A stretch of DNA of 64,000 nucleotides from Escherichia phage vB_EcoM_VR25. How positions within the stretch are numbered: position 1 is the stretch's first letter; every line of letters starts with the position of its first letter. A program made the position numbers and the translations under genes. Below the pieces are notes generated by a model. It was not told the DNA's origin. It saw nothing but the letters and a program-made list of their open reading frames with translations, and searched no databases. The stretch lies in sequence record NC_028925.1. One strand, 5' to 3'. Of the stretch, positions 15,751-19,662 are shown piece after piece.

Positions 15751-15769
15751 TACTTTTTAAAATAAAAAA

Positions 15770-15791
15770 GGACCCCGAAGGGTCCTTTGTA
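15770..15791 (-). terminator. Rho-independent terminator
   Basis: GGACCC-TTCG-GGGTCC hairpin followed by U6-rich run on the minus-strand transcript, directly after the stop of ORF 15792..16076. Confidence 0.7.
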
Positions 15792-16076
15792 TTATTTCTT
15801 ACAACCAACATATTTTGGCATATGACAGAAAACAGAATCGGTAACTACTCGACCCTTTGCCCATGCTTCCTGTGCTTTACCGTGAGTAGTATTCACATAG
15901 CTGGATTTAATATTCTCGATACCTTGAGAATGTGATGCGTGTGCAGAACCATTAGAAGGACCTGCTGACTGACTTGAACCTTGACCGCCTGGGCCTGATG
16001 TGCCTTCAGTAGCCAGTACACCAAAAGACATAACAGCGGCCAACAGGCCTATAGCCACTTTTAATTTTAATTTCAT
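15792..16076 (-). CDS. Secreted Gly/Ser-rich protein with signal peptide, 94 aa
   Basis: N-terminal MKLKLKVAIGLLAAVMSFGVLA signal-peptide-like segment; mature part Gly/Ser/His-rich with two C-terminal Cys. Confidence 0.5.
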   Translation of the reverse strand: MKLKLKVAIGLLAAVMSFGVLATEGTSGPGGQGSSQSAGPSNGSAHASHSQGIENIKSSYVNTTHGKAQEAWAKGRVVTDSVFCHMPKYVGCKK

Positions 16077-16139
16077 ATTTTCACCTTTTATTAACTCAAC
16101 ATTGAGTATGTTTACTATACTACAAAATCATTGAAGCAC

Positions 16140-16328
16140 TTAAATTGCACTCCAAAAATTATGGAATCTGATATCATCGATAGCCCAGTTAGCAAACTCG
16201 CGGGTTTGCTTGGGAGTTGGTTTACATATGTACTTATTGTTGATTCGTCTGCCAGTTTCCCGACAGACTGCTTCGAGATACCACCGCCGACCTTTATTGG
16301 GTCTTCCATATGATAAGAAGACCTTCAT
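16140..16328 (-). CDS. Hypothetical small basic protein, about 62 aa
   Basis: Internal ATG of track ORF 16140..16382, 5 nt after the upstream stop; MKVFLSYGRPNKGRRWYLEAVCRETGRR... Confidence 0.35.
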   Translation of the reverse strand: MKVFLSYGRPNKGRRWYLEAVCRETGRRINNKYICKPTPKQTREFANWAIDDIRFHNFWSAI

Positions 16329-16335
16329 TTCTTCA

Positions 16336-17346
16336 TTAACGATAATAGGAATTGTGGTTGTCAAGATATACCTCTTCAACAAACTTGTCCCAGAACTTCA
16401 TGTCTACCTTATCGGGCATACCGTTCTTCGCAGCCCAGACGGCATTGGTTTCGACTTCATCGACGATTGCTTCAAGTTCAGCTTGTACATCTTTAAAAGC
16501 GTGTAGGCCTTGTTTGATTTCAAGGATAAATGGAGCCGTACGTAAAGGATATTGGAGATCGCCTGCTTGATAGATTTCCTTTAACTGGTATCCAGCACGA
16601 TAAGCATGGCTCAGAGCTTTCCAGTCAATACCTTCGTTAGCTTCGGCCTTACGGGCGCGTTCGCCATATTCAGCATCAAGTTTATTCAGAGATTGCTTAA
16701 GCTCGATTAATGACAAAGTAGTTTGGTATTTGCGACCGAGAACAGTATAAAACGTTTGAGGTCCAGTTTTCTCATGGTTATGGAATACCCATTCGCAGAA
16801 TTCGTTCTCTGGGAGACGATGCTTAATATCTTCAACTTTAGTGCGACGTTGTTTAGTCGAACCATCTTCTTGGTAGTCAACCCACTGTTCAGGAATCTGG
16901 TTAACAATTGCCAGTACACCACGTAAAGCCGCCAGTCTAGAACCTTTAACACCATATTTTGAAGCTTGCTTACGGACGTACCCCAAATATGCTTTCATGT
17001 TGGTCGTATAGAACCGTGAACGGTTGTCTTGGATAAATTTCCATACATCTGGTAAATCGGATTTGACTACCAGGTTAGCCGGAGTGTGAATCATGTCCAG
17101 AGCAACAGTTTCGCCTTCAGCCGCCAGTTTAAAGAAATATTTCAGGCTATAAAGCTCGTGGTCAACATCGTCTTTTGTGTTTTTGGTAGCCGTGTTATTC
17201 GTGTTCAAGTTGGTATGGTTCATAGCCGTACCTAACAGAATGTCACGTGGGTGTGGAACAAAGATTTCCTTAAAATCGACATCAGATTCTGGAGTACTTG
17301 TTCCGTAAAGATGGCTACCGAAGTAGCCTTTCATAACTGTTCTCAT
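16336..17346 (-). CDS. Pol-beta-superfamily nucleotidyltransferase-domain protein, 336 aa
   Basis: ATG start; N-terminal FGSHLYGTSTPESDVDF fits the NTase-fold G[GS]-x(9-13)-D-x-[DE] signature; rest unrecognised; start overlaps upstream membrane ORF. Confidence 0.55.
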   Translation of the reverse strand: MRTVMKGYFGSHLYGTSTPESDVDFKEIFVPHPRDILLGTAMNHTNLNTNNTATKNTKDDVDHELYSLKYFFKLAAEGETVALDMIHTPANLVVKSDLPDVWKFIQDNRSRFYTTNMKAYLGYVRKQASKYGVKGSRLAALRGVLAIVNQIPEQWVDYQEDGSTKQRRTKVEDIKHRLPENEFCEWVFHNHEKTGPQTFYTVLGRKYQTTLSLIELKQSLNKLDAEYGERARKAEANEGIDWKALSHAYRAGYQLKEIYQAGDLQYPLRTAPFILEIKQGLHAFKDVQAELEAIVDEVETNAVWAAKNGMPDKVDMKFWDKFVEEVYLDNHNSYYR

Positions 17347-17795
17347 TTCTTCGCCTCAAAATGGATTACTGGACATACCTTAGATTTACGAGCTTTAATG
17401 TATTGGACGACAAGGTTTTCTTTAATTTCCTTTCCTTCGCGTTTGGCTTTAATACGTTCCCATTCTTTTTCTTCTTTACGTAAATCATACCAGGCCCAGA
17501 AACTCATTGTACAATACACAACGCCAATGGCTACCGCCAGAATAAGAGCCAGTGTAGCCAGTCCTAAAATAAACCCTAACCCTAAACCAACAGGAGTACT
17601 TAATACAAAGAACTGTTCCAATACACCAGCCCCTGCAACAGTTAAGGCAAAGATTGTACTGCCTGCAAGCACAGAACAAATAAAGCAGACCCATACAATT
17701 TTCCAGAAGTAAGCACACAAAGAGTGTGGTCGAGAATAATGGCCATAAAAACGGTCGTGTAATTTAGTGTGCCAGGCATTTTCATTAATAATCAT
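17343..17795 (-). CDS. Polytopic membrane protein, 150 aa
   Basis: ATG start; about three hydrophobic helices followed by a basic C-terminal tail. Confidence 0.5.
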   Translation of the reverse strand: MIINENAWHTKLHDRFYGHYSRPHSLCAYFWKIVWVCFICSVLAGSTIFALTVAGAGVLEQFFVLSTPVGLGLGFILGLATLALILAVAIGVVYCTMSFWAWYDLRKEEKEWERIKAKREGKEIKENLVVQYIKARKSKVCPVIHFEAKK

Positions 17796-17804
17796 TGTAA
17801 TTCC

Positions 17805-18359
17805 TTATGCGTTCATAGTTGGGATAACAGTGTTCAGGTATTTTACCAGAACTTTTAATTCGTCTTTAGTGAATACTACTTCAGCTTCACCATCGTGGGT
17901 CTGGATGATAGATAACATATCACGACCTTGATATTGGTAGACACTGAATTCAGTATTATAATCGCCTTCTTCATCACCTTCAAAGGTTTCGCTTGAATGC
18001 ATAATCGCATCACACCCAGGGATTTTCCACTCGAGCTCAGGTACACACTCTTCTTGGAAGAGTTTAAAAATTTTCTCTAAAAATTCTGAACGGTTTTTAA
18101 TGGATAAACAAGCCCATTCAGTTTCCAGATTAAAGCCATTTTCACCTCGATACAACCAAGCCGCAACTTCATCGTTAATTTTAAAGACACGATTATGAGT
18201 TCGAATATACTGCTCTGCATCAATAACAGACAACTTGTACAGGTTCTGAATATCTTGAATGGTTAAAACGACTGTATCATCTTCTTGTTTAAGCACGATT
18301 GCATTATCAATTACATCGGCAGTCAGGTCACCAAACAACCCAGATTTTTCAATAATCAT
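17805..18359 (-). CDS. Hypothetical acidic protein, 184 aa
   Basis: Track ORF, ATG start; first gene of the run ending with the NTase ORF. Confidence 0.5.
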   Translation of the reverse strand: MIIEKSGLFGDLTADVIDNAIVLKQEDDTVVLTIQDIQNLYKLSVIDAEQYIRTHNRVFKINDEVAAWLYRGENGFNLETEWACLSIKNRSEFLEKIFKLFQEECVPELEWKIPGCDAIMHSSETFEGDEEGDYNTEFSVYQYQGRDMLSIIQTHDGEAEVVFTKDELKVLVKYLNTVIPTMNA

Positions 18360-19629: not shown

Positions 19630-19656
19630 AAAAAAGGTCCACCCGAAGGCAGACCT
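19630..19656 (-). terminator. Putative rho-independent terminator
   Basis: Imperfect GC-rich hairpin AGGTCTGCC-TTCG-GGTGGACCT followed by U5 on the minus-strand transcript, right after the stop at 19663. Confidence 0.5.
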
Positions 19657-19662
19657 TTTGAA

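Follow-up and report, generated by a model that had tools for sequence, protein, structure and literature searches.

What does a nucleotidyltransferase (NTase) encoded in the same breath as a membrane protein do for a T-even phage, and do the two proteins work together? The question is raised by positions 16,140 to 18,359 of a 64,000-nucleotide stretch of Escherichia phage vB_EcoM_VR25 (NC_028925.1), referred to below as the window, in which a 336-residue putative NTase begins where a 150-residue membrane protein ends. An earlier reading made from the sequence alone (the sequence-only reading) considered a signalling or toxin-antitoxin module, counter-defence, and RNA or tRNA modification, and held that no orthologue could be assigned. 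We find that the NTase is the orthologue of T4 NrdC.11 and a member of the RlaP family (PF10127). The explanation that best accounts for the whole, to which we assign a probability of about 0.6, is that it is a long-form RlaP that would add nucleotides to RNA 3' ends during tRNA repair, its gene neighbours being neither subunits nor effectors.

Assignment of the orthologue proved straightforward owing to the protein's identity to nrdC.11 gene products and a shared gene order. Alignment with T4 NrdC.11 (NP_049709, 'nucleotidyltransferase') shows 81% identity over the full 336 residues, and a tblastn search revealed sequences 80-99% identical in hundreds of T-even records; the VR7 and JS98 records label the counterpart gene nrdC.11. 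In VR7, T4 and the locus survey described below, the gene occupies the conserved tk-nrdC position on the same strand, with mobD.1 upstream and nrdC.9/8/6 downstream. That the protein is the NrdC.11 orthologue and belongs to PF10127 is therefore beyond reasonable doubt, and the match to a T4 nrdC.x product is clear, although it is the RlaP family that has been characterised biochemically (PMC12776372) and not the T4 protein itself. The gene is already known: a protein 100% identical to the one studied here is deposited for vB_EcoM_VR25 as 'nucleotidyltransferase', and the T4 orthologue has been named an RlaP in the literature. Orthologues are often named 'thioredoxin' (GenBank, UniRef, JGI), probably because the symbol nrdC gave rise to the label, and there are also records that use 'ArsR family regulator', 'polynucleotide kinase' or 'HNH homing endonuclease'.

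The gene and its parts are as follows:

16336..17346, minus strand: nrdC.11 orthologue, RlaP-family (PF10127) Pol-beta nucleotidyltransferase, 336 residues
16945..17346, minus strand: NTase catalytic domain, residues 1-134, delimited by the Pfam stretch 8-134, the invariant columns and the alpha/beta model
17275-17319, minus strand: G10-S11 and D22-x-D24
17095-17097, minus strand: third carboxylate, D84
16639..16944, minus strand: insert of ~100 residues relative to canonical RlaP, residues 135-236, with beta strands at ~154-208; beta-rich in the model
16336..16638, minus strand: C-terminal helical domain, residues 237-336, with a conserved DWKA-x-SHA-x-R motif; includes the stop codon

Family membership rests on a Pfam match of residues 8-134 to RlaP (42 bits, gathering cut-off 23, E=1.1e-10) and on a match to PHROG 388 (E=1.6e-131), while the NTP_transf_2 model stays under its cut-off (E=0.084). 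The N terminus, MRTVMKGYFGSHLYGTSTPESDVDF, carries the G[GS]/DxD motif that the sequence-only reading had recognised, in the form G10-S11-x10-D22-x-D24. In an alignment of 92 homologues, G10, S11, D22 and D24 are invariant and the third carboxylate, D84, is conserved, with glutamate taking its place in some sequences, such as that of Vibrio phage D479; the catalytic triad is thus intact. Basic and aromatic residues (Y131, K134, R137, R230, K243, H247, R250 and K278) are also invariant or nearly so. The PF10127 score, the PHROG 388 match and the NTase fold of the model described below show that the GS/DxD motif is no chance match.

The AlphaFold2 model of the protein, predicted with high confidence (predicted local distance difference test, pLDDT, 88.9; predicted template-modelling score, pTM, 0.75), consists of an alpha/beta NTase at ~1-130, several beta strands at ~154-208 and a helical C-terminal region at 213-335. 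The Pol-beta NTase fold expected from the sequence was therefore found both as a PF10127 match and in the predicted structure. A Foldseek search of the PDB with the model returned weak matches (E>=0.01), the top ones almost all Pol-beta NTases; the fold neighbours, 10-13% identical, include HalB, the kanamycin nucleotidyltransferase KNTase, LinB, HEPN-associated NTases and HEPN-like helical bundles. Sequence searches of a PDB copy that lacked the PfRlaP structure, using the single protein and the 92-sequence profile, yielded no related chain. Subfamily placement, which had been left to be checked, comes from Pfam, as RlaP and neither CD-NTase nor minimal NTase (MNT), with weak structural matches beside it. 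The PfRlaP crystal structure comprises an N-terminal NTase domain and a C-terminal helical domain whose last helix packs on the NTase (PMC12776372); our model contains an NTase domain and helices at 242-335.

What sets the phage protein apart is the segment between these domains. When residues 135-236 were removed in silico, the RlaP score rose to 55.9 bits from 42, and the aligned part of the 249-position profile now ran as far as position 183. The insert block is naturally absent from a 232-residue homologue in the Krischvirus Escherichia phage Aragogtheria (L007:4001-4699), whose RlaP match reaches position 198 of 249. NrdC.11 can therefore be described as an RlaP core into which ~100 residues are inserted, and this definition of the insert is modestly new.

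RlaPs owe their name to a gene neighbourhood with RNA ligase or other RNA-repair genes, and two of them, from P. fluorescens and P. aeruginosa, were characterised in a preprint of December 2025 (PMC12776372). The Pseudomonas enzymes add one or two nucleoside monophosphates (NMPs), or their deoxy counterparts (dNMPs), to RNA 3'-OH ends, do not use DNA or protein as substrates, favour Mn2+ and the broken end of a cleaved-tRNA mimic, and partially rescue aminoacylation of a repaired tRNA short of one nucleotide (PMC12776372). Their labelling extends to rRNA, single-stranded RNA and full-length tRNA and discriminates little between nucleoside triphosphates (NTPs) (PMC12776372). The same work proposed RlaP as the antidote to "smart" ribotoxins, RloC among them, that cut an RNA and then remove a nucleotide, and placed T4 NrdC.11 in cluster 5 of an RlaP sequence-similarity network (PMC12776372); the same prediction had been made earlier in a comparative study of jumbo phages (PMC7824862).

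Cellular relatives of the long form provide a link to RNA repair that does not depend on the Pseudomonas enzymes. Scanning prokaryotes, with each species represented by one genome, revealed 132 cellular relatives, the best 80 of which were taken as loci; these are 31-50% identical to the phage protein and align from residue 1 to ~325, insert included. The NTase ORF (open reading frame) was recovered in 78 loci, to which the following counts refer. Neighbouring ORFs were clustered, and the main clusters confirmed by Pfam. An RNA-repair neighbour was present in 31/78 loci (canonical RlaP in 24, Pnkp in 9, Hen1 in 9 and RtcB in 6), and in 21/48 of those flanked on either side by 3 kb or more. The Pnkp neighbours carry kinase, phosphatase and PNKP-ligase domains, the Hen1 neighbours Hen1_L and a methyltransferase, and the canonical full-length RlaP (262 bits, ~255 residues) usually abuts the NrdC.11-like gene. 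This RNA-repair context of the long form, and its tandem pairing with a canonical RlaP, are modestly new. Bacterial and archaeal homologues are also found in a Hen1-Pnkp-NrdC.11-like-RlaP type of operon, or near RtcB, with two different RlaP-type NTases in a single RNA-repair operon.

These observations suggest a model for the phage enzyme, built by analogy with its characterised relatives. The metal site formed by G10-S11, D22-x-D24 and D84 would use NTPs to extend the 3'-OH of a broken RNA, probably tRNA halves, by one or a few NMPs, replacing nucleotides cut out by RloC-type anticodon nucleases, which excise nucleotides. Pnk and RNA ligase 1 of the phage itself, whose genes lie elsewhere in the genome, would then reseal a functional tRNA; the 5'-P/3'-OH chemistry of Pnk and Rnl1 is compatible with the RlaP product (PMC12776372). 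The membrane-protein, acidic mobD.1 and small basic genes are syntenic neighbours, the tk-nrdC region being a plastic part of T-even genomes. We consider it probable that the 336-residue protein adds nucleotides to RNA 3'-OH ends, in agreement with the RNA or tRNA modification that the sequence-only reading had listed among its options. That it restores nucleotides lost to RloC-type nucleases before ligation by Pnk and Rnl1 is a more tentative proposal, with odds somewhat short of even.

Several observations weigh against this model. In an hhalign comparison with 18 canonical RlaPs, the alignment is confined to 86 columns of the NTase core (probability 75%, E=2.4e-5), which makes NrdC.11 a divergent subfamily whose substrate specificity could differ, and the characterised Pseudomonas enzymes belong to cluster 1a, another subfamily than cluster 5. 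The tandem occurrence of long-form and canonical RlaPs in cellular operons suggests that the two are non-redundant and divide the labour between them. No RNA-repair gene lies beside the phage nrdC.11 in the part of the window examined (~13.5-21.3 kb), and no operon links it to such a gene; in VR7, pseT (Pnk) and rnlA (Rnl1) are ~86-90 kb from nrdC.11. Finally, viable T4 phage were recovered under laboratory conditions after loss of nrdC.11-mobD.3 (PMC9825161), a result that also fits a conditional accessory function.

Whether the NTase acts with its neighbours was judged from the surrounding genes. The four ORFs described by the sequence-only reading lie at the coordinates it gave, all on the minus strand; they comprise nrdC.11 and the first three genes below, and a fourth gene of interest follows them:

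17805..18359, minus strand: mobD.1 / y05I-like acidic protein, 184 residues, isoelectric point (pI) 4.4; syntenic neighbour
17343..17795, minus strand: membrane protein, 150 residues, with a long hydrophobic core; syntenic upstream neighbour of the NTase gene
16140..16328, minus strand: basic protein, 62 residues, pI 10.2, DUF7279, PHROG 8921; directly downstream of nrdC.11
15792..16076, minus strand: 94-residue protein with a signal-peptide-like N terminus, PHROG 2243

The membrane and NTase ORFs do overlap, in an ATGA that joins the TGA of the former to the ATG of the latter; in VR7, adjacent genes overlap at about a third of the junctions along the homologous 9 kb. To determine how far the pairing extends, we surveyed 85 phage loci with an NrdC.11 homologue, 41-99% identical save for that of Vibrio phage D479, at 29%. 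In 45/85 phage loci a membrane-family gene precedes the NTase gene on the same strand by no more than 5 kb, a total that divides sharply by relatedness: 40/42 loci at or above 58% NTase identity and 5/43 below it. The two genes abut in 13/85 loci, VR20 among them, and elsewhere one to three unrelated genes separate them. The DUF7279 gene was detected in 14/85. In VR26 a 267-residue HNH endonuclease gene lies between the membrane gene and nrdC.11 (locus coordinates L009:4198-5001), while in T4 mobD, an HNH endonuclease gene (L002:14430-15209), fills the slot and the region contains no membrane gene. The T4 insertion site of mobD has been listed (PMC2988022), and these cases suggest that the junction just upstream of nrdC.11 is a recurrent insertion site for HNH homing endonucleases.

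The reverse test gave a concordant picture. A scan of IMG/VR with a hand-made degenerate DNA pattern yielded 95 membrane-family loci on very diverse contigs, of which 12 have an RlaP-like NTase nearby, mostly in close relatives of the window; where at least 2.5 kb was available on both sides, the count was 4/37. The membrane family was absent from all of the cellular NrdC.11-like loci (0/78). The two proteins also diverge at different rates: identity to the window's proteins is 28% for the membrane protein and 82% for the NTase in phage Kha5h, the corresponding figures for VR20 being 77% and 99%. This faster divergence of the membrane protein implies that the two genes have evolved independently, with recombination between them. 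We conclude that the juxtaposition comes from Tevenvirinae synteny and is not a functional module.

Given this distribution, the idea that the NTase produces a nucleotide or oligonucleotide signal, or serves as a regulator or antitoxin, to control a membrane effector, as in the cyclic-oligonucleotide-based antiphage signalling system (CBASS), Hailong HalB/HalA or NTase toxin-antitoxin pairs, is largely refuted, and we give it a very low probability. The pairing from which it arose is lineage-restricted and breakable, as T4 and VR26 show, and most members of the membrane family occur without an NTase. Neither the NTase nor its neighbours matched a CD-NTase (SMODS or cGAS-like), CBASS or MNT model in Pfam or PADLOC, no HEPN or antitoxin family was found among the neighbouring proteins by Pfam, identity to HalB is 13%, and the membrane-protein model has no counterpart in the PDB, HalA included. 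A related idea is that the NTase is not, or not only, a repair enzyme for RNA but a counter-defence or exclusion device with a Hailong-like mechanism, making short oligonucleotides, for example on an RNA or protein primer. Their effect would be either to prevent the opening of HalA-type channels of the host or to gate the co-translated two-helix membrane protein, as a phage channel, in those T-even lineages that couple the two genes. This we regard as very improbable.

Two further explanations retain the NTase activity and change its target. RNA 3'-end addition might serve something other than nuclease damage, namely the tailing of host or phage transcripts or tRNAs to affect their stability or function, or the repair of tRNA 3' ends. 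Such a role is unlikely in our judgement, although the broad labelling of RNAs by the characterised enzymes, with their low NTP specificity, would suit it, as would the lack of linkage between phage nrdC.11 and repair genes and the separate subfamily with its extra insert; against it, the cellular long-form homologues sit specifically beside Pnkp/Hen1, RtcB and canonical RlaP, and the characterised enzymes favour the broken anticodon-loop end of the cleaved-tRNA mimic. Alternatively, the acceptor might not be RNA at all: it could be a small molecule, as for ANT/KNTase and LinB, a host protein, as in the MNT-like AMPylation of a HEPN toxin, or DNA or the enzyme's own tyrosine, as in poly-dA synthesis by HalB, and in this last form the protein might act in counter-defence. 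The fold neighbours listed above (HalB, KNTase, LinB and HEPN-associated NTases, with HEPN-like helical bundles also matching the model) and the weak homology to canonical RlaP outside the NTase core lend this some colour. All of these fold matches are remote, however; the sequence family is RlaP and not ANT, MNT or HalB, the characterised RlaPs modify neither DNA nor protein, and the cellular context is RNA repair, so that we consider a non-RNA acceptor improbable. Repair of broken tRNA by a long-form RlaP thus remains the explanation that we prefer.

The membrane protein is of interest in its own right. Where the sequence-only reading counted about three helices, the AlphaFold2 model (pLDDT 89.1) predicts two long helices (residues 26-62 and 68-120) folded into a hairpin, at one side of which the conserved N- and C-terminal motifs come together in a small domain, possibly a Cys/His site. 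The protein matches PHROG 944 and belongs to a family of at least 1144 cluster representatives at 50% identity (E<=1e-3), in which C27, Y29 and C141 are invariant and S7, W8, H9 and P142 nearly so; the terminal consensus sequences are SWHY...P-x-SLC-x-YFW and PN...Y-x-KAKK-x-K-x-CP-x-IEF. Forms of 200-390 residues with longer hydrophobic cores also occur. No Pfam, NCBIfam or PADLOC model was matched, and the best fold match in the PDB had an E of about 9. The nearest Pfam candidate, 'Oleosin', at 24.1 bits against a cut-off of 25, was rejected as an effect of hydrophobic-hairpin composition, relatives of the protein matching unrelated transmembrane families at random. The description of this large phage membrane family, for which there is no curated model, is modestly new.

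As for the remainder of the locus, the genes follow one another, in the sense in which they are transcribed, as tk, rI, rI.-1/mobD.7, small mobD.x genes, those for a DksA-like zinc-finger and a DUF7189 protein, mobD.1, the membrane protein, nrdC.11, the DUF7279 protein, the 94-residue signal-peptide protein, nrdC.9, nrdC.8 and nrdC.6. The DNA of the region is 92-95% identical to that of Escherichia phages VR7, ESCO10 and VR26. The 184-residue protein matches T4_y05I_N (E=3.9e-31) and T4_y05I_C (E=1.3e-20) in Pfam, and its counterpart is labelled mobD.1 in VR7 and T4. For all four proteins, NCBIfam and PADLOC gave nothing meaningful; the sole listed NCBIfam match scored 15.8 bits against a cut-off of 495. 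Two hairpins bear on transcription:

19632..19659, minus strand: intrinsic-terminator-like hairpin upstream of the unit, past rI.-1/mobD.7; 12-bp stem and T run
15767..15788, minus strand: intrinsic-terminator-like hairpin closing the transcription unit; 9-bp stem with 5 G-C pairs and T-rich tail

Both are strong on the minus strand, and they enclose ~3.9 kb with roughly ten genes, including all four ORFs, making a single operon plausible. The sequence-only reading had called this operon early, a timing that found no support: sigma-70-like promoter matches between 13.5 and 21.5 kb numbered 25, against 22.8 ± 5.2 in shuffled sequence, and hence were not above chance. The hairpin at 15767-15788 is terminator-like on both strands. 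A motif resembling a T4 middle promoter lies at 16114-16138 on the minus strand, between the 62-residue ORF and the gene of the signal-peptide protein, with the MotA box TGCTTCA, a 12-nucleotide spacer and TATAGT; this type of pattern occurs 6 times in the window, where 1.66 are expected by chance.

The ATG of the 62-residue DUF7279 ORF follows the stop codon of the NTase after 7 nucleotides, and not 5 as had been stated. In the survey, this gene lay directly after the NTase gene in 14/14 loci in which it was detected, a closer association with the NTase than the membrane gene shows, though one seen in few lineages; it is present in 210 phage records, of which Klebsiella T4-like phages are the commonest group (137/210). 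The 94-residue protein has a low-complexity region rich in Gly, Ser and Gln and is without a Pfam match, and its gene was detected beside nrdC.11 in just 2/85 surveyed loci.

As it stands, the identification is of little consequence, the gene being a recognised T4-family accessory gene from a family with published activity. It makes nrdC.11 a candidate for a nucleotide-restoring step beside T-even Pnk/Rnl1 tRNA repair, directed against RloC-type "smart" anticodon nucleases. The insert of the long-form RlaP and its tandem pairing, the membrane family and the 'thioredoxin' mis-annotation are possibly useful to specialists.

The locus may finally be compared with known systems. MNT-HEPN and AbiEii/MenT systems combine a minimal NTase (NTP_transf_2 or DUF1814) with a HEPN or antitoxin partner, features that the present genes do not share, and, unlike the effector of a CBASS, the membrane gene next to the NTase is not conserved along with it. 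HalB of the Hailong anti-phage system, reported to be a tetramer of ~217-residue chains that makes tyrosine-primed poly-dA (Tan et al. 2025, via PMC13434031), has the low identity to the 336-residue NTase noted above; HalA is a tetrameric transmembrane channel in a conserved two-gene operon, whereas the hairpin protein has no structural similarity to it and its pairing is not conserved. ANT(4') kanamycin nucleotidyltransferase and LinB act on small-molecule acceptors, without a sequence-family match to the phage protein, and the genomic context holds no hint of antibiotic modification. T4 NrdC.11 shares with its VR25 orthologue a gene position after mobD.1 and ahead of nrdC.9/8/6, and a Pfam RlaP match, at residues 7-134. 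T4 differs in having mobD directly upstream, where VR25 has the 150-residue membrane gene, and nrdC.10 downstream, where VR25 has the DUF7279 and signal-peptide protein genes; NrdC.10, with a weak sub-threshold similarity to P-loop NTPases, has no counterpart in this window. From the canonical Pseudomonas RlaPs, NrdC.11 differs in its insert at residues 135-236 and in a phage gene that adjoins no ligase gene, yet it has in common with them the Pol-beta NTase core with its GS and DxD motifs and third Asp, apparently, to judge by its predicted model, the arrangement of an N-terminal NTase domain and a C-terminal helical domain, and cellular relatives that reside in RNA-repair operons.

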